A stretch of DNA of 64,000 nucleotides, taken from NCBI GenBank assembly GCA_963665655.1, contig OY762429.1, positions 624,503 through 688,502 on the forward strand. The letters run 5' to 3'. The position numbers and the translations under genes were made by a program. This stretch comes from Terriglobia bacterium (GTDB lineage: Bacteria > Acidobacteriota > Terriglobia > Versatilivoradales > Versatilivoraceae). Shown here piece by piece: positions 7,917 to 53,742 of this stretch (position 1 is the stretch's first letter; each line of letters opens with the position of its first letter). Under the pieces are notes generated by a model that worked only from the letters and a program-made list of their open reading frames with translations, was not told the origin of the DNA and made no database searches.

Positions 7917-8798
7917 CTAGACGAATTCCTCCATCAGGTCGTCAAAGAGCTCCTTTTCCATTCCGAGCTTCTGATGAACCAGGGGACCGTCCTTCATGGC
8001 CGGTTCGCTCTCCTCGTAGGTCGGCTGCTCCTCCCGGTAGAAGAGGCCCAGGGGAATGCGATCCCCCCACTCGTAGGCCCGGGTCAAGGCTCCCTGATGG
8101 TCGGTGGCATCGTAGTCCGGGTCATCCTCCAGCTTGTAGACCCGCTTCTTGAACCAGGGGTAGGTGTTGATCTTGTTGTAGGTCACGCAGGGACTGAAGA
8201 CATCCACCAGGGCGAATCCCTTGTGGGCGATGCCGCCGGCGATGACGTCGGCCATGTGTCTGGGCTCCCCCGAAAAGGCCCGGGAAACGTAGGTGGCGCC
8301 GGAGACGATGGCCAGCGCGATGGGGTTGATCGGCATTTCGGCGTTGCCCCGGGGGGTGGACTTGGTGCGTACCTCCTTCATGGTGGTGGGGGAGGCCTGG
8401 CCGGTCGTCAACCCGTAGATCTGATTGTTCATGACGATGTAGGTGAGGTCCAGGTTGCGGCGCATGGCGTGCACGAAGTGACCCAGACCGATGCCGTACC
8501 CGTCGCCGTCCCCGCCGGTGATCACCACGTTCATGTCCTGGTTGGCGAACTTGATCCCGGAAGCCACGGCCACGGCCCGGCCGTGCAGGCTGTGGACGCC
8601 ATAGGCATGGATGTAGCCCGGCAGGTTGGAAGAGCAACCGATCCCGGAGACGGTGAACAGTTCCTCGGGCTTGATGCCCAGCTTTCCGGCCGCCATCTTG
8701 ACGCCCCTGAGAACACCGAAATCGCCACAGCCCGGACACCAGTCCGGATCGATGATGCTTTCATAGGTGCTGATGGGTAAAGAAATCGTCATTTCCAT
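7917..8798 (-). CDS. korB: 2-oxoacid:ferredoxin oxidoreductase, beta (TPP-binding) subunit.
   Basis: CPGCGDFGVL motif and a TPP-binding GDG region. 293 aa. Confidence 0.9.
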   Translation of the reverse strand: MEMTISLPISTYESIIDPDWCPGCGDFGVLRGVKMAAGKLGIKPEELFTVSGIGCSSNLPGYIHAYGVHSLHGRAVAVASGIKFANQDMNVVITGGDGDGYGIGLGHFVHAMRRNLDLTYIVMNNQIYGLTTGQASPTTMKEVRTKSTPRGNAEMPINPIALAIVSGATYVSRAFSGEPRHMADVIAGGIAHKGFALVDVFSPCVTYNKINTYPWFKKRVYKLEDDPDYDATDHQGALTRAYEWGDRIPLGLFYREEQPTYEESEPAMKDGPLVHQKLGMEKELFDDLMEEFV

Positions 8799-8920
8799 AG
8801 GGTGTTAAGCCTCTCCGTTCTCCCCGCGCCCGTTCAGCCGGCGCGGAACCTCAAATCCAAAGCGATTCCAAACCCGATCGATCAGTCGGTCGTGTCGCCG
8901 ACTTCCGTCGGTTGTCCCTC

Positions 8921-10915
8921 TCATTCGGCGGATACCGTCGAGACCGGCTGCCAGGCATAGGTGGATCCGGTTCGCTGCCCGACGAACAGGTCTCCGGTCT
9001 TTTCACCGCCCTTCCGGTTCACCAGTTCGATGCACCAGGTGGGCTCTTCCGCCGACACCCCGTTCCCCACCTGCATGGAGGCCGGACGCACGGCGTTGCC
9101 CAAATGGGTTCGAATGTAGTGGTAGGCGATCTCCTGGGCTTCCTCCCGAGTCACCTCCAGCGACAGCGGCTCGCCTCCTACGATCTCCTTGACCCGGTTC
9201 ACGATGAAGGCCGGCTCGAATGGCTCCCCGTCATACTTCAGGACCATGTCATCCAGGGAGAAGCCGGTCTCGGACCTCAAGTGCTTGGCGAACTGCCCCG
9301 TGTAGTTCACCTCCACGCCTATGGTCTTCCTGCATCCATTCAGGATTTCCAGGGCCTCCTTGGCGTGAAACGGCAGCAGGTACTTGAAATGGAGCTGATT
9401 GGCGGCAATGCCTTCCGATCTCAGGATCTCGGCGGCCTCCCGGATCACGCCCCTGCAGGACCCCCAGCCGACCAGGGTGACGTCCGCATCCTCCGGACCC
9501 TCGATTTGCGGAGGCGGCAGCTCCTTCAGGGCTCCTTCCAGCTTCCTCATGCGCTTTTCCTGCACCTTGCGCCGCACCGGTGGACTGGTGTACTCGTCGC
9601 TGATCAGAATCCCTTCCTCGTCGTGGTCATCGGTGGGAGAAACGTAGACCGTGTTCTTGGTCCCGGGCAGGGCTCGGGGGGATATTCCCGACTCGGTGAA
9701 AGCGTAGCGCTTGTAGGTGCCGTTGCCTTCCGGCCACTCGGTCACCAGTTGGCCCCGGTCGATCACCAGATCGGGCTTGAGCGCATCCCTCTCGATGGTC
9801 TCGGGATGTTCCGAGAGCAGCAGATCGGAGAGAATGATCACCGGGAGCTGGTACTTGTCCGCCAGGTTCAGGGCCTCGGCGGCGGTATAGTAGGCTTCGG
9901 TCACGTCCGCCGGAGCCATGATGATGCGGGGGAAATCCCCTTGGGAAGCCCCCAGCGCCTGGTTCAGATCGGCCTGTTCGGTCTTGGTGGGAATCCCGGT
10001 CGAAGGACCGCCGCGCTGGACCGTGATGAACACGACCGGCGCTTCGATCATGCCGGCCTGACCCACGGCCTCGGTCATCAGGGCAAACCCGCCGCCCGAG
10101 GTGGCGCACATGGAGCGGGCCCCGGCCAGGCCGGCGCCGACAGCCATGTTGGCGACCGCAATTTCGTCCTCGCACTGCTTGACCACGATCCCGCAGCGGT
10201 CGGCATGAGCCACCATCCAGTGCAGGATGGTGGAAGCGGGCGTCATGGGGTAGGCGGAATAGAACTTGCAGCCGGCGGCGACCGCACCCAGGGCCATGGC
10301 TTCGTTTCCGGTGATGAAGGGTCTGCGGATGCGGCTGAAGTTCCATTCATACCCCAGGGGCACGAATTTTTCCTTGGCGTAGTTGTATCCCGCCTTGGCC
10401 ACCTGGACGTTCTGGTTGACCACTTCCCGGCCCTTGTGCTGGAAGGTGTCGGCCAGGACTTCGGCCATCATCTCGAAATCCAGTCCCAGCAGGAAGATGG
10501 CCGCGCCCAGAGATACCGTGTTCTGCATGACGGGAAGCGTTTTCCCCAGCGGCTTCAGCAACTCCCGCACGGGCATCGGCACCGGCAGGACCTGACTCTC
10601 GAAAAGCGAGGAGTCCAGGGTCAGCTTGTCGGAATTGAACAGGACAGCTCCGCCGGGCTCCACTTCTCGGGCATGCCTTTCCAGGGTGTCCTGATTGAGA
10701 GCGATCAGCAGATTCAGGTGGTCTCCGTGAGAGTAGACCTTTTCCTCACCCATCCTCACGCGCAACCAGATGTGGCCCCCGCGGATGATGGACTGGTAAC
10801 TGTTGTAGGCATAGAGATACAGCCCCAAGCGGGAGGCGGTCTTGGCGAAGGTGTCGCCGGTCTTGTCCAGCCCGTCGCCGGCGGCTCCTCCTATTCCCAA
10901 GGTCACTTCTTTCAT
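8921..10915 (-). CDS. korA: 2-oxoacid:ferredoxin oxidoreductase, alpha subunit with the gamma domain fused at the N-terminus (two-subunit OFOR type).
   Basis: 664 aa. The N-terminal gamma-like GIGGAAGDG is followed by the alpha domain. Sits directly upstream of korB. Confidence 0.9.
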   Translation of the reverse strand: MKEVTLGIGGAAGDGLDKTGDTFAKTASRLGLYLYAYNSYQSIIRGGHIWLRVRMGEEKVYSHGDHLNLLIALNQDTLERHAREVEPGGAVLFNSDKLTLDSSLFESQVLPVPMPVRELLKPLGKTLPVMQNTVSLGAAIFLLGLDFEMMAEVLADTFQHKGREVVNQNVQVAKAGYNYAKEKFVPLGYEWNFSRIRRPFITGNEAMALGAVAAGCKFYSAYPMTPASTILHWMVAHADRCGIVVKQCEDEIAVANMAVGAGLAGARSMCATSGGGFALMTEAVGQAGMIEAPVVFITVQRGGPSTGIPTKTEQADLNQALGASQGDFPRIIMAPADVTEAYYTAAEALNLADKYQLPVIILSDLLLSEHPETIERDALKPDLVIDRGQLVTEWPEGNGTYKRYAFTESGISPRALPGTKNTVYVSPTDDHDEEGILISDEYTSPPVRRKVQEKRMRKLEGALKELPPPQIEGPEDADVTLVGWGSCRGVIREAAEILRSEGIAANQLHFKYLLPFHAKEALEILNGCRKTIGVEVNYTGQFAKHLRSETGFSLDDMVLKYDGEPFEPAFIVNRVKEIVGGEPLSLEVTREEAQEIAYHYIRTHLGNAVRPASMQVGNGVSAEEPTWCIELVNRKGGEKTGDLFVGQRTGSTYAWQPVSTVSAE

Positions 10916-38007: not shown

Positions 38008-38298
38008 TCACCTTCGGACGTCGTACCGTTTCCAATCGGGCAGGTGGGCCGTCATCAGCGCCTTGAAGAGCTTGCCGTGGTTGGGAACGCGCAGGTGCAG
38101 CAACTCATGAGCAATGACGAAATTCTGGAAGTCCGTGTCCTGATCGGCCAGGTCGGCAGCCAGGGTGACGATTCCCGACGTGGAACAGGAACCCCACTTT
38201 CGCGTCATGCGCTGAACGCGAACCAGCCGCGGGCGCACATTCAGGCGTTGCGCCCAGTGCTCTACGCGACCGCGAATGGCTTTGCGCTGATCGTTCAT
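38008..38298 (-). CDS. Short YgjP-like M48/DUF45 zinc metallohydrolase (96 aa, C-terminal HELLH half only). It is translationally coupled (ATGA) to the hsdR stop.
   Basis: KWGSCS...[13 protein letters not shown] motif. Confidence 0.65.
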
Positions 38299-41267
38299 GC
38301 GTCGGCATCGGCGCTTGCGCCCAGGAGAATCGCGAGTATGTCCTCTACGACACGGCTCCGTTTGTCTTTGTCCAGTCTTAGAAGCGGTTGATAGAGGGCC
38401 GCCCGCAACCGCCTCTGCTCGTCCCCGTTGACCGTTGCGTTGGGGAAGCGCCCCAGGAGTGCATCGGCCTGCTTCCCAAGATCCTCGGCACCGACCTCAG
38501 CCATCCTCAACCGTTTGTCGTCCTTGAGCGCCCAATAGACGCCGAACCCACGCGGGGAAAGGCCACTATTTCTGGCCGCTACAACGGCCGCTTCCTTCTC
38601 CCGAGCGATTACCGCCAGCCGGTCCATGGCCTCAAGACCGGTGGCCTTGCGCTCCTCAAGGTCTTTCAGGATGCGCTCGGCGCGCTCCTTCAAGGGGAGC
38701 AGCACAGGCTCCAGGTCCGGCTCGCTGCTGATTTCGTGCCGGAGGCCGCGCACGAGGTTGAATACCTTTGCCTCGTCCGAACCCGACTCGCCTCGAAGGG
38801 CTTCGAGAGTGCTCACGTCGAACGTCACCGTTTTACTTGAGCGGCCGAGGCCTCCCTGGGCCGCGCTCTCCTGCACCATCAGGCGCGTCTTGTTCCCCAG
38901 GTCGATCGCGTAGTTGACCCGCGTGGCATAGGCATTGCGGACGGCTGCATAGAGATGAGCCAGGCGTTTGAAGGTCGAGATATGGTCCCGCAGCTCGGGT
39001 GACGGCGACAGGATCTCCCAAAGCGCCTCGATCTCCTTGTAGGCTTCGAAAAACGCCGTGCGCGATTCCAATTCCAGAAAGCGCCCATAGACGATGTGCT
39101 CCAGGCGCTCGTCTTGCCCGCCGGCCCCCTCGTCTTCGAGATATTCCGCCTTGGCCTTGGCGATCTTGAGATGGAAGTCTCTCATCAGCACATCCAGATC
39201 CTCGATCACCCCGCTTACGTCGGAGGAATCGAACTGCAGCGCCTTCTTCAACTCCCGGAGCACCCCCACGAAGTCGACGACCAGGCCAATGCGTTTGCGT
39301 CCACCGGCGGCGTCCACGTAGGGCCGGTTCACGCGGGCAATCGCCTGCAAAAGCACGTGGTCGCGCATCGGCTTGTCCAGGTACATGCAGTACAGCAGCG
39401 GCGCATCGTAGCCGGTCAGCAGCTTGTCGGTCACGATGAGGATCTTCGGATCCTCGTCCGCCTTCTTGAACATGAGCCGCATGTCCGCCTCCCGTTCGGG
39501 CGAGAGCTGAAGCTCTGCGACCAGCGGCCGGTCGACGATGTCGGCAGGGTTGTCGGTATAGACCGGCGCGGTCCATTCGGGCGGCAGCAGCTTGTCGAGG
39601 GCGCGTTTGTACTTGGCGCAGGCTTCGCGGTTCACCCCAACCAGGAACGCCTTGTAGCCGAGCGGAAAAACGTTCTCCCTGAAATGTTCGGCGACGAAAG
39701 CAGCGACTTTCTCGATCCGGTCGTCGGCGGTGAGGAAAGTCCTGAGACCCACGGCTTTGTCGAGGACGCGGTTCAGCTCATCGATGTCGGTGACCCCTTC
39801 CATCTCGGCCAGGGCGAAGAACTCCTTGTCCAGACGATCGACCGGAACGGTCATGCGGCCAGGCGCCATGGTATGGCGGATCGGCAAGGTGGTTTCGTCC
39901 TCGATCGATTCGGCAATGGTGTACTTGTCGAGATATCCCTGTTCGTCATCGGCGCCAAAAATCTTGAAGGTCCCCTCTCCATGCTCCGTTCGTGCAATGG
40001 GGGTGCCGGTGAAGCCGATGATGGTTGCATTGGGTACGGCCGCCATCAGGTAGGTGCCCAGGTCCTTGGCAACCGATCGGTGCGCCTCGTCGATGAAAAC
40101 GTAGATGTTGCCCCGCACATTGGCGTCTTTCTCGATGCCCTCGAACTTGTGGATCATCGAGAGGATCAAACCCCGCTTGTCGGTTTGGAGCATTTCTCGG
40201 AGATCGGCCCTGGAGTCGGCGCGCCAGACAGGGATGTCCTGCTGCTGCATCTCCCCGAGAAGCCGTTCCACCCAGCCTGCGAGCTGGCCCTCCAGATCGG
40301 TTCGGTCCACCACCACAACCACCGTCGGCGTGTGGAACTTGGCCTTGGCTTCCAGGATCAATCGTGCGGCCGTCAGCAGAGTGAAGGTCTTGCCGGATCC
40401 CTGGGTGTGCCAGACCAGACCGCGGCGCCTTGCCGGCTCGGAGCAGCGTTCCACAATGCGCCCCACCGCCCGGCGCTGGTGTTGGCGAAGCACGGACTTG
40501 CGCGTCTCGCCGTCCTCGACGTAGAAGAGGATCCAGTCGCGTAGCGTTCGAAGAAAGTCGGTCGGCTCGAAGAAGGACTGGACGGCGAACCGATAGCTTT
40601 CCTCGGGCTGCTCCTTCCAGCGCGCCATGAAGCGGCGTGAGACGTTCCAGGTGACGCCATACCAGTAGTCGAGCAGATGGGTAACGTTGAAGAGCTGGGC
40701 CGCACCCATCAGCTCGGGCGTCTCCTTCTCATAGCGCCGCAACTGTGTGAGGCCCTTCTCGATGGCATCCGCGTCCGTGGGGTTCTTGTGTTCGACGATG
40801 GCCGCCGGCACGCCGTTGACCACGAACATCACGTCCGCACGGTTGCCCTTGCGCGCCGGTGGCTTGAGCTTCCATTCCCAGGTGACGTGCAACAGGTTGG
40901 ACGCCGGCCTCTCAAAATCGACGATTTGGACAGGCCGGTGACGCTGCTCGGCCTCGTCGTACCACTGCCGCTCCCCGCGCAGCCAGGCAAGCATCTCGCG
41001 GTTCCCCTCGATGGTCGGCGGGAGTGCTTCGAGTCGTTCCGCGACGGCGCGGACGGCGCCGTCTGTCAACCAGGGATTGAACCGGTGCAGGGCAACTTCG
41101 AGTTCGCCTTGAAACAGCAGCCCTGCTTCACCGCCTCGCTTCTGCCGAGCATCCTGCGGCGAGATCGGCGTCCAGCCAATTTCCTCGGCGTGACGTACCA
41201 TCGGGAACTGCACGGAGCCGGCTTCAGTGATGTGGAGGGTGGTCACCAATGACTCTCCGCTTAACAA
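38295..41267 (-). CDS. hsdR: Type I restriction enzyme, R (helicase-nuclease) subunit.
   Basis: 990 aa. Typical N-terminus. TQGSGKT Walker A. SF2 helicase motifs. Confidence 0.95.
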
Positions 41268-41318
41268 TTCCCCTTGTTGGCTGTATCTTTATCTAATTGG
41301 TTTCCCAAGGGGTTGGCG

Positions 41319-41552
41319 ATGATCACCGTGAATGTCCGTGAAGCAAAAACCAACCTGTCCCGCCTGCTGGCGCAAGTCGAGGCAGGCGAGGAGGTCATCA
41401 TCGCCCGCAACGGCAAGCCGGTGGCGCGCCTGGCGCCACTCCAAGAGCGGGGCAGGCCCCAACCCGATGTCTTCAAGGGAAAATTCGTCCTCCCGGACAG
41501 TTTCTTCGACCCGCTGCCTGAGGAAGAGTTGAAAGCGTGGGAAGGTGGTTGA
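41319..41552 (+). CDS. Phd/YefM-family antitoxin, copy 1.
   Basis: MITVNVREAKTNLSRLL... 77 aa. Confidence 0.8.
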   Translation: MITVNVREAKTNLSRLLAQVEAGEEVIIARNGKPVARLAPLQERGRPQPDVFKGKFVLPDSFFDPLPEEELKAWEGG

Positions 41553-41555
41553 GAT

Positions 41556-41625
41556 TGCGACTGCTGCTCGACACCCATGCCCTCATTTGGTGGCTCACCG
41601 AAAGCAGGCGCCTTGGTGTTCCCGC
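41556..41625 (+). pseudogene. vapC (PIN toxin) 5' remnant. Only ~21 codons remain (MRLLLDTHALIWWLTESRRLG) before the sequence runs into R-repeat copy 1.
   Basis: Homologous to the N-terminus of the intact VapC at 42247. Confidence 0.55.
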
Positions 41626-41708
41626 TTGTCGATCATCTATGAACATCAAAGTGCGTTGTCGATCATTTTCTTGAGAAAGTGATCGACAAAGAGCGTTGCT
41701 TGTCATAG
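41611..41708. repeat. R-family repeat, copy 1 (~100 bp). It holds TTGTCGATCA twice in direct orientation and once inverted. These form a hairpin with a 15-bp stem and a 4-nt loop (TTGTCGATCATTTTC-TTGA-GAAAGTGATCGACAA).
   Basis: Direct reading. Copies 2 and 3 lie at 42643-42762 and 44661-44770. Confidence 0.7.
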
Positions 41709-41715
41709 CTCCATG

Positions 41716-41955
41716 TCACAGCTTGTCATGGCTTGGGACCAGGCTACCCCTCGTCATCCAGGGATTGAACCAGTGGAGTGCTCCTTCCAACTCGCTTGGA
41801 AACAACAGCCCGGCTTCGCCGCCTCTCATGGCGAGGGCTTCCCGCGACGAGATCGGCGTCCAGCCAATTCCCTGGGCGTGACGCGCCATCGGGAACTGCA
41901 CGGAGTTGGCTTCGGCGATGTGGAAGTCCGTCACCGCCCGTCCTCCGTTTGACAA
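41716..41955 (-). pseudogene. Duplicated fragment of the hsdR 5' end (first ~70 codons, ~75% identical to the real hsdR N-terminus).
   Basis: ORF 41716..41955(-) aligned against the HsdR N-terminus. Confidence 0.7.
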
Positions 41956-42006
41956 GCCGAGGCATTAGTCATATCATTAGCTAAACTGACCGGAGAGGAG
42001 CAAGCA

Positions 42007-42243
42007 ATGGTAACGGTGAACGTCCACGATGCGAAGACCCACCTGTCGCGCCTCCTGGTCCAGGTCGAAGCAGGGGAGGAGGTCATCATCGCCCGCAACG
42101 GAAACCCTGTAGCCCGGCTGGTGAGCTGCAAGAAGCACCGTAAGCGAAAACCCGGTTCCATGACAGGGCTTTTTACGGTACCCGACAGCTTCTTTGATCC
42201 ACTGCCCGAAGAGGAGTTGGCCGCATGGGAAGGGAACCCATAG
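42007..42243 (+). CDS. Phd/YefM-family antitoxin, copy 2.
   Basis: MVTVNVHDAKTHLSRLL... 78 aa. Confidence 0.8.
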   Translation: MVTVNVHDAKTHLSRLLVQVEAGEEVIIARNGNPVARLVSCKKHRKRKPGSMTGLFTVPDSFFDPLPEEELAAWEGNP

Positions 42244-42246
42244 CGG

Positions 42247-42633
42247 ATGCGGCTACTTTTGGACACCCACGCCTTTCTGTGGTGGATCATCAATGACGAC
42301 CGGTTGTCACAGGCTGCCAGGCGGGCAATAGCGGACGACGATAACGACGTGCTGGTCAGTGCAGTTTCCACCTGGGAGATTACGACCAAGCACCGAACCG
42401 GTAAACTGCCCGCGGCAGAGCCACTGGCCGAGAATATCGTTCGGGCGATAGGTCTCGAAGGCTTCGGGGAGCTGCCCATCACCGTAGACGAAGCCGCCCG
42501 CGCGGGCGCGCTTCCCGGCCCCCTCCGTGACCCGTTCGACAGGATGCTCATCGCCCAGGCGCTGGCCCGCAACTTGGTCCTCCTATCCAACGAGTCTCTT
42601 TTCGACCGCTACGACGTCCGCCGCTTGTGGTGA
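42247..42633 (+). CDS. vapC: VapC PIN-domain toxin, intact.
   Basis: LLDTHAFLWW ... PIN acidic residues. 128 aa. Confidence 0.85.
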   Translation: MRLLLDTHAFLWWIINDDRLSQAARRAIADDDNDVLVSAVSTWEITTKHRTGKLPAAEPLAENIVRAIGLEGFGELPITVDEAARAGALPGPLRDPFDRMLIAQALARNLVLLSNESLFDRYDVRRLW

Positions 42634-42642
42634 CGCGCGCCC

Positions 42643-43477: not shown

Positions 43478-43843
43478 TCATGAGTCGGATTCACTCCGCA
43501 GTATTTCTTCCAGACTCGCGATCAGCACCGGCAGGTCCTGTCGCACGGTCTGCCAAACGATATCGAGGTTGATGTTGAAATACGCGTGAACGAGGCGGTT
43601 TCGCATAGCTACAATTTCCTGCCAGGGGATTTCCGGTGTCTGGGTTCGCCCGGATTCAGTTATTCGGACCGCAGCCTCACCCACGATCTCAATGTCCTTG
43701 ACCAACGACAGCACCAGTTGGCGGTCGGTCTCCAGGTCGGCGCGGGCTCGGCCTCGCGTGAACGACACGGCTTCGAGCGCCGCGTCCAGCATATGGCGCA
43801 AACGGATTTCGTCAGCCCTGTGCATACTGAACCTCGGCCGCAT
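43478..43843 (-). CDS. hepT: HepT-like HEPN toxin (DUF86). Contains the RNRLVHAY Rx4-6H motif.
   Basis: 121 aa. Overlaps the mntA stop. Confidence 0.8.
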
Positions 43844-44123
43844 CTAACACGTCCTGTCGAAAATAGTGGCTCAGGTCCTCAGGCGTCCTTAAATCAACCT
43901 TGCGGCCCGAAAACAGGTCTGACAACTCCAACTCCATACCAGCCACGCCCAGCAGTCCGGGTATGCGATCGGGTTCGAACTCGACAAGCACGTCAATGTC
44001 GCTCTCCGGCCCAAAATCCTCCCTTAAAGCCGAGCCAAAGAGGGCGAGCCATTTGATTCCGTGCTCTTGGCAGAAAGACGCAAGGGCGGTCGTGGATATC
44101 GATATCTGTGGGTTCATTGCCAT
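43812..44123 (-). CDS. mntA: MntA nucleotidyltransferase antitoxin (GS...DID motif).
   Basis: 103 aa, with [22 protein letters not shown]. Confidence 0.8.
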
Positions 44124-44660: not shown

Positions 44661-44770
44661 GCTTGTCGATCATCTATGAACACCTAAGCGCGTTGTCGAT
44701 CATTTTATCGTAAAAGTGATCGACAAAGAGCGTTGCCTGTCACCGATGATCGTCAAAAAACCTCCCCCCC
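44661..44770. repeat. R-family repeat, copy 3. It overlaps the fic 3' end. The hairpin loop is altered to TCG.
   Basis: Direct reading. Confidence 0.7.
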
Positions 44771-45868
44771 TTCTGCGATGTTCAGGAGAGCCGGAAAAAG
44801 GAACATGCTGGCCCGTCGGCCGCGGCCGGGCCTGGCAAGTTTCAGAATCTCGCCTTCTCGAAGTACGACGAGAAACCGACGAGCGGTGGGCTCCGGGATG
44901 CCTGCACCCTGCACAAAGTGGGTGCTGGTGAAAATCGGATAGGCGAAAATCCAATCCAGAGCCCGAAGGGCGTACTGCGAGCGGGTCAACTCCGCCACGC
45001 GCTGCTTCATGCGGCCGTAGAGATCGATAATGCCTTGAGCCTTGTCCAGGTTCTCCTCGGCCTGAACCCGCACCGCCTCAAGGAAGAACCGGCACCACCC
45101 TGTCCAGTCGTCGTCGCGGGAGACGGCAAGCAACCCATCGTAATAGGAATCGCGGCGGGCTTCGAAGTAGGCGCTGATGTAGAACCGGGGCGCCCTGATG
45201 AGCCCGGCGTGCCACAGGAACAGCGGCACCAGCATGCGCCCGAGGCGGCCATTGCCATCCAGGAACGGATGCAGCGCCTCGAATTCGGCGTGGAGGATGG
45301 CGAGTTGCACCAAGGGGTCGGGTGCGTCACGGTGGATGTCGCGCTCCCACGCGCCCATTGCGCCAGGAAGCTTGTCTGCCCGGATCGGCACGAAGGTGGC
45401 CTGGTCGACCGTGCAGCCGGGCGGCCCGATCCAGTTGGGGACCCGGCGATACTCACCGGGCGACTTTCCCTCGCCTCGCACGCCGCTCAGTAGTACCCGA
45501 TGGGCCTCGCGAATCACTCGCAGGGACAGTGGCAGATCTTTCAGCATGTTTTCCGCGCGCCGCATGGCGGAGCGATAGTTGATAACCTCGTGGATGTCTT
45601 CCCGACGAGCGGCTGATTCCGGTTCTCGTCCAGCCTCGTACTCCAGTACTTCACCCATGGTGGCCTGAGTGCCTTCGATGCGTGAAGAGAGCACCGCTTC
45701 CCGGGTGGTCAGCGGAGCAAGCAAAACATCGGGATTAGGAGTGGCTCCAAGCAACCCGTCGTAGCGAGCCACTGCTGCGGCAGCGCGGCCGATGAGCGGG
45801 ATCAGCTTCGACCAGTCGAGACGCTCCTCTGGCGGGAATTTACCCTCGTGATAGTAAACGGGTGGCAT
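44753..45868 (-). CDS. fic: Fic/DOC family protein (HPFLDGNGRLGR motif).
   Basis: 371 aa. Confidence 0.85.
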   Translation of the reverse strand: MPPVYYHEGKFPPEERLDWSKLIPLIGRAAAAVARYDGLLGATPNPDVLLAPLTTREAVLSSRIEGTQATMGEVLEYEAGREPESAARREDIHEVINYRSAMRRAENMLKDLPLSLRVIREAHRVLLSGVRGEGKSPGEYRRVPNWIGPPGCTVDQATFVPIRADKLPGAMGAWERDIHRDAPDPLVQLAILHAEFEALHPFLDGNGRLGRMLVPLFLWHAGLIRAPRFYISAYFEARRDSYYDGLLAVSRDDDWTGWCRFFLEAVRVQAEENLDKAQGIIDLYGRMKQRVAELTRSQYALRALDWIFAYPIFTSTHFVQGAGIPEPTARRFLVVLREGEILKLARPGRGRRASMFLFPALLNIAEGGEVF

Positions 45869-46525: not shown

Positions 46526-47761
46526 TTACGCGACTTTCTTGAATGTAAGAACTACCTCACGTCGGATGCGGCCATCAAGCGCTGCCGGCTTTCGTTGTTT
46601 GGATGGCGGTGGCAGGTAGCGACGGTTCGCTGGTAAGTCTCTCGAACGGCGGGCAATGCAGTGGAGACCCACTCTGTTGGCAATCTCCTCTACTATCAAG
46701 GAATTAGGAACAAATGTGCCGCGCACGGTGTTTTCGCCAACCACATACACAGCCTTTCCACGCTCAGTGAGCACTCTAGCCGTCTCCCCCACGGCAAGCC
46801 ACATATCGTCGATGTACCGGACCAGAATTGATTCCCACCTCCTTTGCAGTTTAGGTTGTAGATTCAGTTGGAGGAGAATTCTGTGGACATCATTGTTGTC
46901 GTCCGCACCTTTACCGACTTCCGTGCCCACGATGGTTGACCTAAGACGGCGCACCTCTCTGATGGAATAACCCATCCAGACCAACGAGAACTTACTGCAC
47001 CGTAAGTAGTCGATAGCGTTCAAGTACGGTGGAGATGTAAGTACCAGGTCGATAGAGCCGTCGTCTATGGGAAGACTGCGTGCATCGCCCCGATGCACGC
47101 ACGCAATCGGGCCGGTATTAGGGAGACTGATGTTGATGCAGTTGTTGGCAACACGTTCTACAGACAACCGGAACTTGGAGAAGGGCTTTAGCGGGGCTCG
47201 CTCAAATGCCTTGTGCGGTCGGCTGTGAGAAAGGTCCCTTGCCAGCGAGGCACCGGACTGCTTGGCAATGATCAGACGAGAGAAGGCACACCACAAAGCA
47301 TCTCGGATTTTCTCATCACGAACATCCTGGATTGCCGTGGCGAGTGAAGCAAGTTGGCGTCGCACATAGTCATCGAACCAGAATCTTATGAACTTTCGAG
47401 TCTCGTCGTCTGCATTCTCAGGGTATGCGTCGCGTGTGCGTAATGACGAGAACAATTGACGCGCGAGTTCAAGTACCTCGGTGCCTTTCTCCTGCAAGGC
47501 TGCTGAGTCAATTGCAGTCGTCCAGACCCTCGAAATGAGCACTGCCAGAGGGTCAATGTCAATACCGATTGCATGGTGTCCCTTTGCACGCGCAATTGCG
47601 AGCACCGTTCCCGATCCCGACATCGGATCGAGAACCCGAAGGGAATCTTTGTGATCTTCGACTACGTCTAGAGCAAGGTCTGGCGCCATCCGAGCCGGAA
47701 ACGGATGGACCGCCCCCCGACCTAGGATCTCGTAGGCGTTCCTACTGTTTGATCGGTTCAT
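46526..47761 (-). CDS. N4/N6 DNA methyltransferase, alpha-like motif order. Motif I (DPMSGSGT) is near the N-terminus. Motif IV (TSPPY) is at ~aa 262.
   Basis: 411 aa. Its start lies 7 bp downstream of the GHKL-nuclease stop. Confidence 0.85.
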   Translation of the reverse strand: MNRSNSRNAYEILGRGAVHPFPARMAPDLALDVVEDHKDSLRVLDPMSGSGTVLAIARAKGHHAIGIDIDPLAVLISRVWTTAIDSAALQEKGTEVLELARQLFSSLRTRDAYPENADDETRKFIRFWFDDYVRRQLASLATAIQDVRDEKIRDALWCAFSRLIIAKQSGASLARDLSHSRPHKAFERAPLKPFSKFRLSVERVANNCINISLPNTGPIACVHRGDARSLPIDDGSIDLVLTSPPYLNAIDYLRCSKFSLVWMGYSIREVRRLRSTIVGTEVGKGADDNNDVHRILLQLNLQPKLQRRWESILVRYIDDMWLAVGETARVLTERGKAVYVVGENTVRGTFVPNSLIVEEIANRVGLHCIARRSRDLPANRRYLPPPSKQRKPAALDGRIRREVVLTFKKVA

Positions 47762-47767
47762 AATCTC

Positions 47768-50350
47768 TCACCCCTGATATCGTTCATCAGATGGATAATC
47801 CTGCAAAGCTGTTTCGATGGCGCCAATCACGTTCTCCGCACTCTGGTCGAGTTCTACCTTCTCTGACGTAGCGAAAATAGCACCAGGTGCCATCTGGGTC
47901 ATCGCTCTACAGAGGTCGCAGAGTTCGTCATCCGTTTGGTACTCGATGGGAGGCCGAAGATGAGAGAGCTCGACCCGGAGGGCAGAGTAGCGTACCGACG
48001 CTTTGTTGAACTTCTTCTGCAACTGGGCGATAGTCTCAACGATCTTGCGATAGGGAGGATTTTCGACAGACGACTTGCGGATAGATTCGACCCAATCAAA
48101 ACTCTGGTTGGGGAGGCTGCATTCTCTGAAAAGCTCACGTATCTTCCGAAGTCCTACCTGTTTGACGGGGCGCAACCGGACGAGCCGGGCAAGATCATCC
48201 ACTGTGAGGAGGGTAATTGTGCGGTTTTCTCCTGCAGCAGCTGACTTGCGCCTATCATCCTTGATAGATTGTCCGAGCGCTGAATTGTCCCCTTCAGAGG
48301 TTGGAAACGCCGGTCCTACAACAAGGGCATGATCGCATTTGTATTGGTCACGATGCCTAATTACTGCCGCGATGTCAGTATCTTTTGCGGAGGCCTTCGT
48401 GTTGCTCCTCTCTTTGCTCTTTGCCTCCAGGCTCACGGTGTAACGCTGAGGATTACCCTTGTCATCTGCCGGCAGGTGTGCGGTCGCCGCTCCGTCGGGG
48501 CGCCCCTTTTTGCCAAGAGGTGTCACGTCGAACCCGAGGCTGCGGAATGCGTTGCAAACGCTTTCCTCCAGACGGTCCGGGCTGTTGCGCGCTTCCAACA
48601 GCGTGTTGGCGACGGATAGTGCGCTCTTATGGCCTGACTCGTTGGCAAGATGGCGTAGAAGCTGATCGCGTGCTGAGAGAAATTCATCAATCTCGCTTGC
48701 CCTCACGGCGATCGAATGGAGATACGCTTCGGCAAGGACCTCAGCCATTGCAAACATCTCCAGTGGTTGTCCCAGTTTCTTGTTGGTGAATTCGTCATGG
48801 AACGTGGCTACGAAAGGGTGCCATCCATTCAATCGTAAAGCGCCCGATTCCGTGTCGAACCTGACGATCCCGTCGCGTGATGAACCTCCAAAGTCAATCG
48901 TGACACCTGTGACGAATCGCTCCGCGTTGGACGCCCGTTGCTCAAGGTCAAAGAGAAATGCTTCCCGCTCCTCCCTTGATTCGTGCCTCGGGACCATCAG
49001 GTGGCGGGCCTTACTCTTGCACTCCGCAACAGCTCGCGAGAGCTCAATGATCGGCCTACGTGTCAAGCTGGCCGGACTAGCGGCGAGCTTGCGAGCAAGC
49101 TTCTCACCTGGCTCTTCACCCTGATCGTGAATCTCGATCGCAGGACGCACCGCATTGAAGATCGCCCTAAGTACGTCCTGGGCCCTTTCGAGTAGCGGGC
49201 CCTCGCTAACTGCTTCCCGGTTCGACCGGAGCCCATCGTCCAGTCCGTCCATATGAACAACGAGACGGAAGCGCCCGAACGTACCGTGTCTCAACTCGTT
49301 AGGCGAAATTCCGAAGTGTCCATCGGAAACGTTGAGGAGCCGTCCGTAAACGTAAACAAAGAATCCATGACTCCGGCTGATTTCGTCCGATTTTCCAGTC
49401 AGCAGGTCCTTATACGCCTCTGCGTACCCTGTGATGCGCCCTAGTCCTGGGACATTGAGCCCGAAGCGATGCTCGCTAATCTCAGGCAGGCTCTTGTCCG
49501 GCGACTCCGTTATTCCCTTGGGGCTCGGACGCGGAAGTTCTACCAAGTCCTGCCCAAGGACCCAGCGCTTAAGTAAACCCTTACCTTGCTTGCTTGGTTC
49601 GAGCTTCTCGCCGTCTAACCAGATGCTGAAGTCAGGTCGCAAGGGCAGTGCAGTCCGCAAGACCCATCGGAGTACCCCCGGCCTTATCTCGTGGACCTTG
49701 TCTTTCAAAGCAGACATGATCCCAATCGTCCAAGAATCTGGACTGCCCTTCCCAAAGAGTACGGTATTTGCAGCCTGGAATGCGGGAGACTGAGTCCATG
49801 GGCTGACAGCCTGCTCCGCTTGAGCAGGGGTCAACTCGCGGAGCGCGATCCTTACCGGTGTCTTCGGCTCGACATTGTCATCAACACGCCTATCGATCTT
49901 GCGGTAGTTCATGGATGTGGAGTAGTATCTCGTGCCTCTCTTGCTGATGTGGGTCAAACGATTCGCAAGCACATAGGTCGCGAGCTTACCGATTCCAAAC
50001 TTCCCGATCTGCTGCCTACCGCGCGGCAGCACAGAACGCCGGCGTTTCCTGCTGACGCCAATCAGCCAGTGCTGCCTGAGTCCCTGCTGATTCATCCCTT
50101 CGCCATCATCAATCACCGCAATCGTCGCATCCTGCCTATGAAGGTTCGGTGAAAGAATCACATGCACGCCCAGAGCACCCGCGTCGAAGGAATTCGCCAC
50201 CAGTTCCTCTATGGCTTTGTTGGGACTGGTATACAAGCCTTCGGAGAACAACTCGACGATCCTATAGCTAAGGCGGACGTCGATTTTGCCGGTCTCGCTA
50301 CCAATGGAGGCAAATGTAGGCGCATTATCCAATTGAAACTCCTCCATCAC
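47768..50350 (-). CDS. GHKL (Bergerat-fold, MutL/Hsp90/MORC-like) ATPase fused to a C-terminal Mrr-like PD-(D/E)xK restriction-endonuclease domain.
   Basis: The N-terminus has EELVANSFDAGA...VIDDGEGM...GKFGIGK. The C-terminus has FRSLGFDV...RPDGAA...YTVSLEAKSK...ALVVGPAF. 860 aa. Confidence 0.8.
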   Translation of the reverse strand: MMEEFQLDNAPTFASIGSETGKIDVRLSYRIVELFSEGLYTSPNKAIEELVANSFDAGALGVHVILSPNLHRQDATIAVIDDGEGMNQQGLRQHWLIGVSRKRRRSVLPRGRQQIGKFGIGKLATYVLANRLTHISKRGTRYYSTSMNYRKIDRRVDDNVEPKTPVRIALRELTPAQAEQAVSPWTQSPAFQAANTVLFGKGSPDSWTIGIMSALKDKVHEIRPGVLRWVLRTALPLRPDFSIWLDGEKLEPSKQGKGLLKRWVLGQDLVELPRPSPKGITESPDKSLPEISEHRFGLNVPGLGRITGYAEAYKDLLTGKSDEISRSHGFFVYVYGRLLNVSDGHFGISPNELRHGTFGRFRLVVHMDGLDDGLRSNREAVSEGPLLERAQDVLRAIFNAVRPAIEIHDQGEEPGEKLARKLAASPASLTRRPIIELSRAVAECKSKARHLMVPRHESREEREAFLFDLEQRASNAERFVTGVTIDFGGSSRDGIVRFDTESGALRLNGWHPFVATFHDEFTNKKLGQPLEMFAMAEVLAEAYLHSIAVRASEIDEFLSARDQLLRHLANESGHKSALSVANTLLEARNSPDRLEESVCNAFRSLGFDVTPLGKKGRPDGAATAHLPADDKGNPQRYTVSLEAKSKERSNTKASAKDTDIAAVIRHRDQYKCDHALVVGPAFPTSEGDNSALGQSIKDDRRKSAAAGENRTITLLTVDDLARLVRLRPVKQVGLRKIRELFRECSLPNQSFDWVESIRKSSVENPPYRKIVETIAQLQKKFNKASVRYSALRVELSHLRPPIEYQTDDELCDLCRAMTQMAPGAIFATSEKVELDQSAENVIGAIETALQDYPSDERYQG

Positions 50351-51506
50351 TCAGGAGACTCAGTTTTTTCACCTGAACCTCCCCTGTCATCAGTTTGTAC
50401 AGTAGTGCCTTGAAAAGATCGCAGAGCACTGCGCTCTTTCTTCGGTGCAAGTTAATCTTGCGGTCAATAGCCTCAAGGACCGCGGCGATTTCGCGCTGCT
50501 CGTCAATTCGCGGTAGCGGGATTTTGTGCTCATTAATCACGCCTTGCGTTATCAGCGGTTGCCCCGCCATTCGCCTGAATCGGTTGAGATTGTAATATTC
50601 GAGAAAAGCCGCAATAAACGCTACGTCCGCATTGTAGTTATGCCACTCCTTCGCGTAGAGCGCATTATCAGTCACCCAAACTTTGCCGGATGCAATATGC
50701 ACCGCACCGCAGTACTCACCTACTCGTCCAATGATAAGGGCCTGCGGCACATCCAAATACCATTCGCTGGCGAACCCCATCACGCCATTGCCACCAAGAA
50801 CAGGAAACGGCTTCTCATCATTCGGGAGATTCGACAAGGTACTCGGCCGCTTTTTTCCACTTGTTAGTCTGAAAATCTGGTCACAAGGAGTTAATATCCA
50901 ACTCTTCGGTATCAGCCCGATTTCGGTTCCCTTCTGCGGCTCGCCCCGCAGGCCGCTCGTGAACAGCGTCTGCACTGCGGCGCGTTTGAGGGTCTGGCCT
51001 TGCTCGACCAACTTCTCTGATCGGCGGATCGCCTCATGGGCGAGCCAAAGCAGGTCGGCAATCCGCCGCTGTTCATCGACCGTGAAGGCGGGCACTTCAA
51101 AGTTGCGTACGTGCGCCCATGACGTTCTCGGATGCTGGACGCCCGTAGTTCCCGCGACGGCGTGCTCCAGGAAGCCATCTGAATGAGCAACCGTAGCCAA
51201 GAATCTCGGGTTCACATCCTCTTTGGCCCGGAGCACCAGCAACTCCGTCGTGCAGACACCCGGCTCGTCAGCCAATATGGCCTTGTCGAGATAGGGACGG
51301 AGCTTTCCGTATAGCACGTCACCGGGTTGGAACGCGGAGGTGGCGCTTCGCATCTCCGAGGCCCGACCGCCGCCAATTCGAACCAGCCGCCCGGAAGCAA
51401 GATTTTCCAGACCAAGATAGAGCGCATCCGGCCGCTCACCGGGTTTGACCGGCTCCCTGACCAGGTCGCACAGGTCAGCGAGGCGAACCGTTTTCCTTGC
51501 AGTCAC
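50325..51506 (-). CDS. hsdS: Type I R-M specificity subunit, with two target-recognition domains.
   Basis: 393 aa with a typical HsdS N-terminus and central conserved region. Confidence 0.85.
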   Translation of the reverse strand: MTARKTVRLADLCDLVREPVKPGERPDALYLGLENLASGRLVRIGGGRASEMRSATSAFQPGDVLYGKLRPYLDKAILADEPGVCTTELLVLRAKEDVNPRFLATVAHSDGFLEHAVAGTTGVQHPRTSWAHVRNFEVPAFTVDEQRRIADLLWLAHEAIRRSEKLVEQGQTLKRAAVQTLFTSGLRGEPQKGTEIGLIPKSWILTPCDQIFRLTSGKKRPSTLSNLPNDEKPFPVLGGNGVMGFASEWYLDVPQALIIGRVGEYCGAVHIASGKVWVTDNALYAKEWHNYNADVAFIAAFLEYYNLNRFRRMAGQPLITQGVINEHKIPLPRIDEQREIAAVLEAIDRKINLHRRKSAVLCDLFKALLYKLMTGEVQVKKLSLLSDGGVSIG

Positions 51507-51874
51507 GCCAGCCCCTTCAACCGCACGGCCGGCAGTCTATTCAACTGCTGACTTCGCGGGTCCACCTCGATGCCGACGGACTCCAGCGCCGTCACGCCCA
51601 GCAGCGGCTCTGCGTCAGATTCGCCGAAGATGACTGTCCCGCCGACGAATTCACCCATGAACTCAATCTTGGCGACGGTGACATCCACCGTGATCTCGCT
51701 CCCATCGGCCAGTTCATAGATGCGCTTCCCCTCTGGCTTGAGGCCAATGGCTTCCAGGTGAGGCCTAGGCACCAAGGAATCGGTGACCCCTGTGTCAACC
51801 AGAAACAGACCCTCCCAAAACCGGTCCGGCTCCGCGGGGTTGGTAATCCTGACCGTTACGTGCGTCGCTCCCAT
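51503..51874 (-). CDS. Retropepsin-like (clan AA) aspartic protease (LVDTGVTDSLV), 123 aa. It lies between hsdM and hsdS with a 4-bp overlap.
   Basis: DTG motif in a small single-domain protein. Confidence 0.65.
   Translation of the reverse strand: MGATHVTVRITNPAEPDRFWEGLFLVDTGVTDSLVPRPHLEAIGLKPEGKRIYELADGSEITVDVTVAKIEFMGEFVGGTVIFGESDAEPLLGVTALESVGIEVDPRSQQLNRLPAVRLKGLA

Positions 51875-51909: not shown

Positions 51910-53742
<1,833 letters not shown>

Follow-up and report, generated by a model that had tools for sequence, protein, structure and literature searches.

The window analyzed here is a 64,000-nucleotide (nt) stretch of the genome of a Terriglobia bacterium (contig OY762429.1 of assembly GCA_963665655.1, positions 624,503 to 688,502 of the forward strand). 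Two adjacent genes on its minus strand, designated R and M, probably constitute an autonomous, modification-blocked restriction-modification module. R encodes a protein of 860 amino acid residues (aa) in which an N-terminal GHKL ATPase is joined to a C-terminal PD-(D/E)xK nuclease, and M encodes a DNA methyltransferase of 411 aa. The pair was read in this way because the nuclease site is intact, because a DNA methyltransferase almost always adjoins R and can be replaced by one of another class, and because the pair also stands alone. A sequence-only reading of the window had allowed for either modification-dependent or modification-blocked restriction. The linkage to a methyltransferase strongly favours the blocked form and disfavours the dependent one, because a host with a modification-dependent nuclease tied to a methyltransferase would see its own DNA attacked.

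Both open reading frames (ORFs) of that reading were recovered exactly where it had placed them on the minus strand, and all of the peptide motifs that it quoted were present in R and M. The close adjacency of the two genes also stood, with an actual distance of 6 nt in place of the 7 bp given. The features of the pair are as follows:

47768..50350, minus strand: R gene, intact ORF of 860 aa, listed start GTG at 50350
49706..50299, minus strand: GHKL (Bergerat-fold) ATPase domain of R, ~residues 18-215
49151..49681, minus strand: S5-fold transducer-like domain of R, ~residues 224-400, from Foldseek and invariant residues
48584..49150, minus strand: helical middle region of R with a small beta element, ~residues 401-589, from AlphaFold2 secondary structure and conservation
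48191..48583, minus strand: PD-(D/E)xK nuclease domain of R, FokI/HindIII/BspD6I type, ~residues 590-720
47786..48190, minus strand: C-terminal helical region of R, ~residues 721-855, with winged-helix-like domains
47762..47770, minus strand: R stop codon TGA and the 6-nt spacer (GAGATT) ahead of the M ATG, read from the sequence
46526..47761, minus strand: M gene, ORF of 411 aa for an amino-methyltransferase (N6-adenine or N4-cytosine), ATG start

Domain organization of R and M

An AlphaFold2 model of R was built as a monomer from 62 diverse homologues (mean predicted local distance difference test, pLDDT, of 90; predicted template modelling score, pTM, of 0.73), and the conservation of R was measured over 62 full-length relatives with 28-82% identity to it. 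The N-terminal GHKL ATPase that had been proposed from the sequence was supported by both profile and fold. Pfam HATPase_c_3 matched residues 42-169 (E 3.1e-20, 73 bits against a cutoff of 25), and the GHKL motifs were assigned as I (E49xxxN53xxD56), II (D81xG83xG85), III (G116xxG119xG121) and IV, which includes T133. The protein carries EELVANSFDAGA at residues 48-59, DDGEGM at 81-86 and GKFGIGK at 116-122, and the ATP-site residues E48, E49, N53, D56, D81, G83, G116, F118 and G121 were invariant in 62/62 relatives. In the transducer-like domain, R337, N340 and R378-E379 (LRSNRE) were also invariant, and R378 is a candidate gamma-phosphate sensor.

When the model was searched with Foldseek, it matched the ATPase cassette of MORC3 (6o1e) with an E-value of 5.5e-15 over 429 columns. 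Structural comparison of the N-terminal part gave scores of 19.4 for MORC3 (292 residues, root-mean-square deviation 2.9 Å), 17.8 for MORC2, 16.9 for TRAP1, 15.9 for SMCHD1, 14.1 for the MutL N-terminal domain and 13.5 for ParE; the sequence identity to MORC2/3 was just 14-18%. According to the model, residues ~1-400 comprise a GHKL domain and an S5-type transducer and are most MORC-like. The S5-fold transducer is placed straight after the GHKL domain, which is the arrangement that marks proteins of the MORC/paraMORC type. A sequence search of solved structures with whole R and with the 62-sequence profile returned Hsp90 N-domains only.

Within the middle region, N508 and H511 (NGWHPF) were invariant and E537, E541, R561, D562 and R566 were conserved in more than 90% of the relatives; no Pfam or PDB match specific to residues 401-589 was found. 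The middle region could mediate dimer contacts, read DNA or hold a second active site.

Residues 570-860 were searched separately, because the whole-protein structure search was uninformative for the C-terminal half. Structural comparison of this part gave 13.1 for HindIII, 13.0 for the nickase N.BspD6I, 12.9 for FokI, 11.9 for the small subunit of R.BspD6I and 7.6 for the Mrr-like AF1548, and many winged-helix domains matched the last ~130 residues at ~7-8. R carries RPDGAA at 617-622 and SLEAKSK at 640-646, and the candidate catalytic residues are E595 (conserved in 59/62 relatives), D619 (D/E in 61/62), E642 (E/D in 60/62) and K644 (58/62). A profile of 25 family C-termini matched HindIII in the PDB across the D-A-K-S motif (E 0.0017), and Pfam models matched some of the 25 individually, FokI_cleav_dom in eight (best 9e-5) and Mrr_cat in six (best 1.8e-6). 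In an hhalign alignment with the FokI cleavage domain, for which the FokI sequence was entered by hand, D619/E642/K644 aligned with D450/D467/K469 of FokI (E 1.9e-5), and R has both the fold of a FokI-type cleavage domain and the equivalents of those three residues. The nuclease was thereby confirmed, by fold and conserved residues, as a PD-(D/E)xK domain of the FokI/HindIII/BspD6I kind with an intact active site. As judged from residue conservation, the ATPase and nuclease centres are both under selection.

The sequence-only reading had called the nuclease Mrr-like. The PD-(D/E)xK assignment held, and the Mrr label proved only approximate: R and the type IV enzyme Mrr belong to the same PD-(D/E)xK clan and share weak Mrr_cat similarity. 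Membership of R in Mrr was rejected, given Mrr_cat scores of 16.2 bits for the full protein and 19.7 for the C-terminus against a cutoff of 21, and a structural distance much greater than that to FokI/HindIII. The combination of ATPase and nuclease was likewise upheld, and the tandem winged-helix-like domains that follow the nuclease, a candidate DNA-reading module, had gone unnoticed.

The assignment of M as an N4/N6 DNA methyltransferase was sustained. Pfam N6_N4_Mtase matched it with an E-value of 4e-7 (30.6 bits against a cutoff of 26.7), and the PADLOC model MTase_II (PDLC03322) matched it end to end (E 6e-35). M is a permuted amino-methyltransferase, alpha-like in motif order, because motif I (DPMSGSGT, 45-52) precedes motif IV (TSPPY, 242-246; ~190 aa apart) and because its N-terminal HPxPxR...DPxxGSGT block corresponds to the C-terminal end of the N6_N4_Mtase model. 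A plasmid-borne relative that aligns with M at full length (25.6% identity) adjoins an MvaI/BcnI-family endonuclease and a C protein; together with the SPPY motif, this hints at N4-cytosine as the target base.

Two permuted-type methyltransferases, one of them 40% identical to M, were also observed on an Allorhizobium pseudoryzae plasmid (NZ_CP049245.1, 1040-7179; locus L106), where they flank a 756-aa HATPase_c_3 + HATPase_c protein named 'sensor histidine kinase' and a 409-aa protein of unknown function. The 'sensor histidine kinase' is another paraMORC-type protein (compare PMC8011034), and an M-type methyltransferase therefore partners with a different paraMORC-like GHKL protein too.

Occurrence and linkage of R and M

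When 1.84 billion cluster representatives were searched exhaustively with R by HMMER, 2888 of them matched at E<=1e-3. At E<=1e-30 there were 457 matches; the latter figure, which counts 50%-identity clusters, was taken as the family size. R aligned at full length with more than 120 homologue clusters at 69-96% identity, the closest 120 of which bore no names, and the ~820-900 aa architecture was maintained down to ~30% identity. Family members are called 'ATP-binding protein' or 'hypothetical protein' at NCBI, and no Pfam, NCBIfam or PADLOC model spans R at full length. Censuses of defence systems probably count the R-M locus as an orphan methyltransferase.

Homologues with 59-79% identity to R were found in metagenome-assembled genomes of Latescibacterota, Alpha- and Gammaproteobacteria, Binatia, Acidobacteriota, Rhodothermales, Planctomycetota and Verrucomicrobiota. 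This cross-phylum distribution indicates that the family has been horizontally transferred. A plasmid search with R returned N-terminal GHKL matches only and no full-length homologue. Decayed copies of R were also seen, two of them frameshifted (loci L010 and L014) and one carrying a deletion (L052); such copies are usual for restriction genes.

Gene neighbourhoods were compared across 105 R-family loci, to which genomes contributed 15, exact look-ups 3, metagenomes 80 and viral contigs 7; nine of these loci were too short to be judged for an adjacent methyltransferase. An M homologue adjoined R in 93 of the 96 informative loci (93/105 overall). It lay downstream of R in 84 of them, upstream in eight and convergent in one, such that adjacency was kept despite the change of order. 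In two of the remaining three loci the methyltransferase was of another class. Locus L102 contains a 295-aa beta-class N6_N4_Mtase (8445-9332) directly downstream of the R homologue, and in L104 (3944-5488) the R homologue, a distant relative, stands beside Vsr and a C5 cytosine methyltransferase; neither locus contains an M homologue. Such a swap to other classes is what restriction-modification logic predicts. The sequence-only reading had named the routine occurrence of R without a methyltransferase as the pattern that would speak against it, and this pattern was not found. Across 72 complete pairs, the identities of R and M to the window copies were correlated (r = 0.95).

The pair is a self-contained, autonomous two-gene module, since it is also found alone among housekeeping genes. 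In locus L017, its neighbours are a cupin gene on one side and an ABC transporter operon on the other, and no further defence gene is present; no third gene was conserved across the collected loci.

The order hsdM-hsdS-R-M, which places the pair behind the modification and specificity genes of a type I system, was observed in at least 11 other loci (L002-L006, L008, L010, L042-L044, L046, L050, L081). Because the order recurs where the identity of R to the window copy is no more than 44-77%, the two-gene module must repeatedly have moved together with type I hsdMS genes or inserted behind them.

Known relatives, proposed mechanism and rival explanations

The linkage of MORC-like GHKL ATPases to restriction, which the sequence-only reading mentioned as a prediction of comparative genomics, was traced to Iyer, Abhiman & Aravind 2008 (PMC2292703), where prokaryotic MORCs and paraMORC1-5 were described in restriction-modification operons, paraMORC3 with a C-terminal restriction-fold nuclease. 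R shares with those systems the N-terminal GHKL domain and S5 transducer, a fused or neighbouring restriction-fold nuclease, the methyltransferase linkage and the patchy horizontal distribution. Most of the 2008 systems contain a superfamily II helicase and C5 methyltransferases with Vsr, whereas the R-M pair consists of two genes with an amino-methyltransferase and no helicase. paraMORC3 is now Shedu type I-D, and the anti-phage defence of its Vibrio cholerae representative VcSduA requires the GHKL glutamate and the nuclease lysine (PMC12137116). Like R, VcSduA combines an N-terminal GHKL ATPase, a clamp-like middle and a C-terminal PD-(D/E)xK nuclease in one chain; unlike R, it has a DUF4263 nuclease and is a stand-alone gene, whereas R has a FokI/HindIII-like nuclease, extra winged-helix domains and a methyltransferase partner. 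Membership in Shedu/paraMORC3 was rejected, as neither R nor the 25 family C-termini matched DUF4263 at E<=0.1 and R does not stand alone.

Two functional type II enzymes, HgiDII and BbrUII, begin with a GHKL domain (PMC2441816, PMC5829577). Their NCBIfam model, NF050001, is the best named sequence match of R (E 7e-18), and both are restriction enzymes with an N-terminal GHKL domain and a methyltransferase partner. Membership of R in this family was rejected, as the match reached 64.5 bits against a cutoff of 550 and covered residues 37-162 only; moreover, the C-terminal domain of HgiDII is of unknown fold and ~200 aa shorter, unlike that of R (PMC2441816). The characterised HgiDII (R.HgiDII) is included in the five REBASE subfamilies listed with an N-terminal GHKL domain (Orlowski & Bujnicki 2008, PMC2441816). 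Another of these subfamilies, R.VeiORF1182P, had 19 members in 2008 and is classed as putative type II, with a GHKL N-terminus and a C-terminal PD-(D/E)XK domain (PMC2441816); compared by description only, it has in outline the same architecture as R, and if it equals the R family, R is a further member of a listed subfamily. In FokI, BspD6I/MlyI and HindIII, the catalytic domain is joined to sequence-recognition domains only, whereas in R it is joined to an ATPase clamp. MutL was rejected at 11-25 bits against NCBIfam cutoffs of 180-840, with matches to the N-terminal part only and a C-terminal half made of nuclease and winged-helix domains, and MzaB was rejected on score and coverage. The pair is of a general kind that was predicted in 2008, and related GHKL nucleases have been studied; the family itself lies outside the named families tested, with VeiORF1182P compared by description only.

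A lone FokI-type domain cuts one strand, and dimerisation is needed for a double-strand break. GHKL ATPases (GyrB, MutL, Hsp90, MORC) dimerise through their N-termini on binding ATP. Because FokI-type domains need dimers and GHKL ATPases dimerise on ATP, an ATP-driven dimeric clamp is proposed for R. M would place N6-adenine or N4-cytosine methylation on a specific sequence of the host chromosome. R would be the restriction subunit and would read the same sites when unmethylated; the reading probably falls to the C-terminal winged-helix domains, the middle region or both. The binding of ATP would shut a MORC/MutL-like dimeric clamp on DNA bearing unmethylated sites, and closure of the clamp would juxtapose two FokI-type PD-(D/E)xK domains, which would then make a double-strand break; hydrolysis of ATP would reset the enzyme. 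The gating of cleavage by ATP-driven GHKL dimerisation is judged probable, at a lower confidence than the module itself. It is possible, if rather doubtful, that R represents a distinct mechanistic class in which a MORC-type clamp closes ATP-dependently and licenses FokI-type dimerisation solely at unmethylated sites. If so, R would be a compact bacterial MORC relative that reads the methylation state of DNA, the pair would offer a simple two-gene model for the coupling between epigenetic marks and DNA clamping by MORC-type ATPases, and the family could supply ATP-switchable, programmable FokI-like nucleases. According to a prediction of 2008, eukaryotic MORC chromatin ATPases descend from GHKL/MORC-type ATPases linked to restriction systems. 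With a large, two-gene, confidently modelled family that combines two well-understood parts, a MORC-like clamp and a FokI-like domain, the way in which such an ATPase contributes to restriction becomes directly testable.

Several observations weigh against the reading of the pair as a modification-blocked module or against its ATP-gated form. In locus L015 (from OY282519.1; 8007-10565), R is intact with all of its catalytic residues and no methyltransferase lies within 8 kb. No clear hypervariable, swap-like target-recognition region was found in R or M among the 72 pairs, which is unusual for a restriction-modification family of diversified specificities and makes sequence-specific recognition less certain. 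The restriction-enzyme models of PADLOC and NCBIfam match only the N-terminal ~110-125 residues of R, and the AlphaFold2 model, being of a monomer, is silent on dimerisation. HgiDII and BbrUII are listed as ordinary type II enzymes and are not known to require ATP, so a GHKL domain alone is no proof of ATP-dependent cleavage. We infer for the pair that it recognises specific sequences, is blocked by methylation, depends on ATP, cleaves under the gating of dimerisation and acts against phage. The sequence-only reading knew of no biochemical characterisation; this is correct for the exact family of R, of which no characterised member was found in the literature, and incorrect for the wider kind, which includes HgiDII, BbrUII and VcSduA.

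None of the rival explanations was favoured over restriction-modification. The pair may be an ordinary, ATP-independent type II system (IIP or IIS-like) for which Mg2+ alone suffices, with the GHKL domain needed only for dimerisation, as a scaffold or for slow regulatory switching. The nearest named relatives of the N-terminus, BbrUII/HgiDII (NF050001) and the PADLOC REase_II models, point this way, as do the cataloguing of BbrUII and HgiDII as type II (PMC2441816, PMC5829577) and the standard type II/IIS kind of the nuclease domain. However, the invariance of the ATP-binding and hydrolysis residues in all 62 relatives, down to 28% identity, and of the transducer residues too, is hard to explain if the domain is purely structural, and the GHKL glutamate of VcSduA is essential for defence (PMC12137116); this explanation is considered unlikely. 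Improbable as well is a selfish addiction or abortive-infection module, in which M would serve mainly as an antidote, R would be a toxic nuclease of weak or no specificity that is triggered by ATP and, like Shedu, responds to DNA ends or structure, and the main outcome would be cell or post-segregational killing and not site-specific restriction. The architecture parallels that of the single-gene GHKL + PD-(D/E)xK defence of VcSduA/paraMORC3 (PMC12137116), neither R nor M has an obvious swappable recognition domain, toxin-antitoxin and Fic genes surround the pair, and mobility across phyla suits a selfish element. Yet no DUF4263/Shedu signature is present in R or 25 relatives, the winged-helix domains at the C-terminus of R suit site reading, and a partner that is a DNA methyltransferase, replaceable by two other classes, suggests protection through DNA marks.

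A role outside defence was also weighed, in which R would be a MutL-like repair or epigenetic-maintenance factor that nicks or remodels DNA in connection with the methyltransferase mark. The GHKL domain and transducer are the engine of MutL and MORC, some paraMORCs were possibly recruited to repair (Iyer et al., PMC2292703), and the distant relative in L104 adjoins Vsr and a C5 methyltransferase. The patchy, horizontally transferred distribution, the defence-island and type I settings and the decay into pseudogenes do not fit such a role, nor does a protein with a FokI-type cleavage domain and without the MutL C-terminal domain, and we regard it as very improbable. Least credible of all is a modification-dependent, type IV-like nuclease beside an unrelated or regulatory methyltransferase: Pfam gave no Mrr_N match in R, and the linkage to a methyltransferase contradicts modification dependence.

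The surrounding type I locus and defence island

The sequence-only reading had set the pair inside a type I restriction-modification locus, and hsdM, hsdS and hsdR were indeed located around it, with R and M situated between hsdM/hsdS and hsdR:

51910-53742, minus strand: hsdM of the type I system
50325..51506, minus strand: hsdS of the surrounding type I system (Pfam Methylase_S 4.6e-13)
38295-41267, minus strand: hsdR of the type I system

Along the minus strand, the gene order is hsdM (with an N-terminal helix-turn-helix, HTH), a small retropepsin-like ORF, hsdS, R, M, a SoFic-like Fic gene, MNT/HepT, Phd/PIN, hsdR and a YgjP-like gene. The GC content of the window falls from ~0.64 to ~0.55 across 42-51 kb. 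The place of the pair in a type I operon, within a low-GC block with Fic, HEPN/MNT and PIN/Phd, reflects defence-island clustering and not functional dependence. A promoter and terminator scan of 45.5-54.6 kb gave counts at or close to the shuffled expectation.

The true start of R is probably TTG at 50332 (residue 7), which gives 854 aa, rather than GTG at 50350, because GGAGGAG lies 6 nt upstream, because P0001, a protein 96% identical to R, was called at 854 aa, and because the homologues align from residue 7. The 3' end of hsdS overlaps the start of R by 8 nt with the TTG start and by 26 nt with the GTG start. At the other end of the gene, a purine-rich, Shine-Dalgarno-like GGGGTGAGAG straddles the R stop codon ahead of the M start, which suggests that R and M are translationally coupled.

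Just downstream of M lies a Fic/DOC protein (44753-45868, minus strand) that matched PADLOC SoFic at full length (E 1e-108) and the NCBIfam SoFic equivalog at 148 bits against a cutoff of 550; it is a candidate separate defence gene of the same island. It is followed by an MNT nucleotidyltransferase gene (43812-44123) that overlaps a HepT-like HEPN RNase gene (43478-43843, minus strand), a toxin-antitoxin pair within the type I locus. Two Phd/YefM antitoxin ORFs, ~70% alike, were found at 41274-41552 and 42007-42243 (plus strand); a PIN toxin gene (42247-42633) comes after the second of them. A 79-aa ORF at 41716-41955 (minus strand), clearly similar to residues 1-75 of HsdR, represents a second copy of the hsdR 5' end, upstream of the true start of the gene. 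A toxin-antitoxin cassette seems to have been inserted or duplicated at the 5' end of hsdR (window 41261-42640).

HsdM (610 aa) has an N-terminal HTH_3/HTH_31 fused to HsdM_N and N6_Mtase; the mechanical ORF of hsdM reaches 54438 from an upstream TTG, which is probably unused. Between hsdM and hsdS, an ORF of 123 aa (51503-51874, minus strand) encodes a retropepsin-like aspartyl protease (Pfam Asp_protease_2 6e-7), an odd passenger for a type I operon that is present too in the 96%-identical locus L016.

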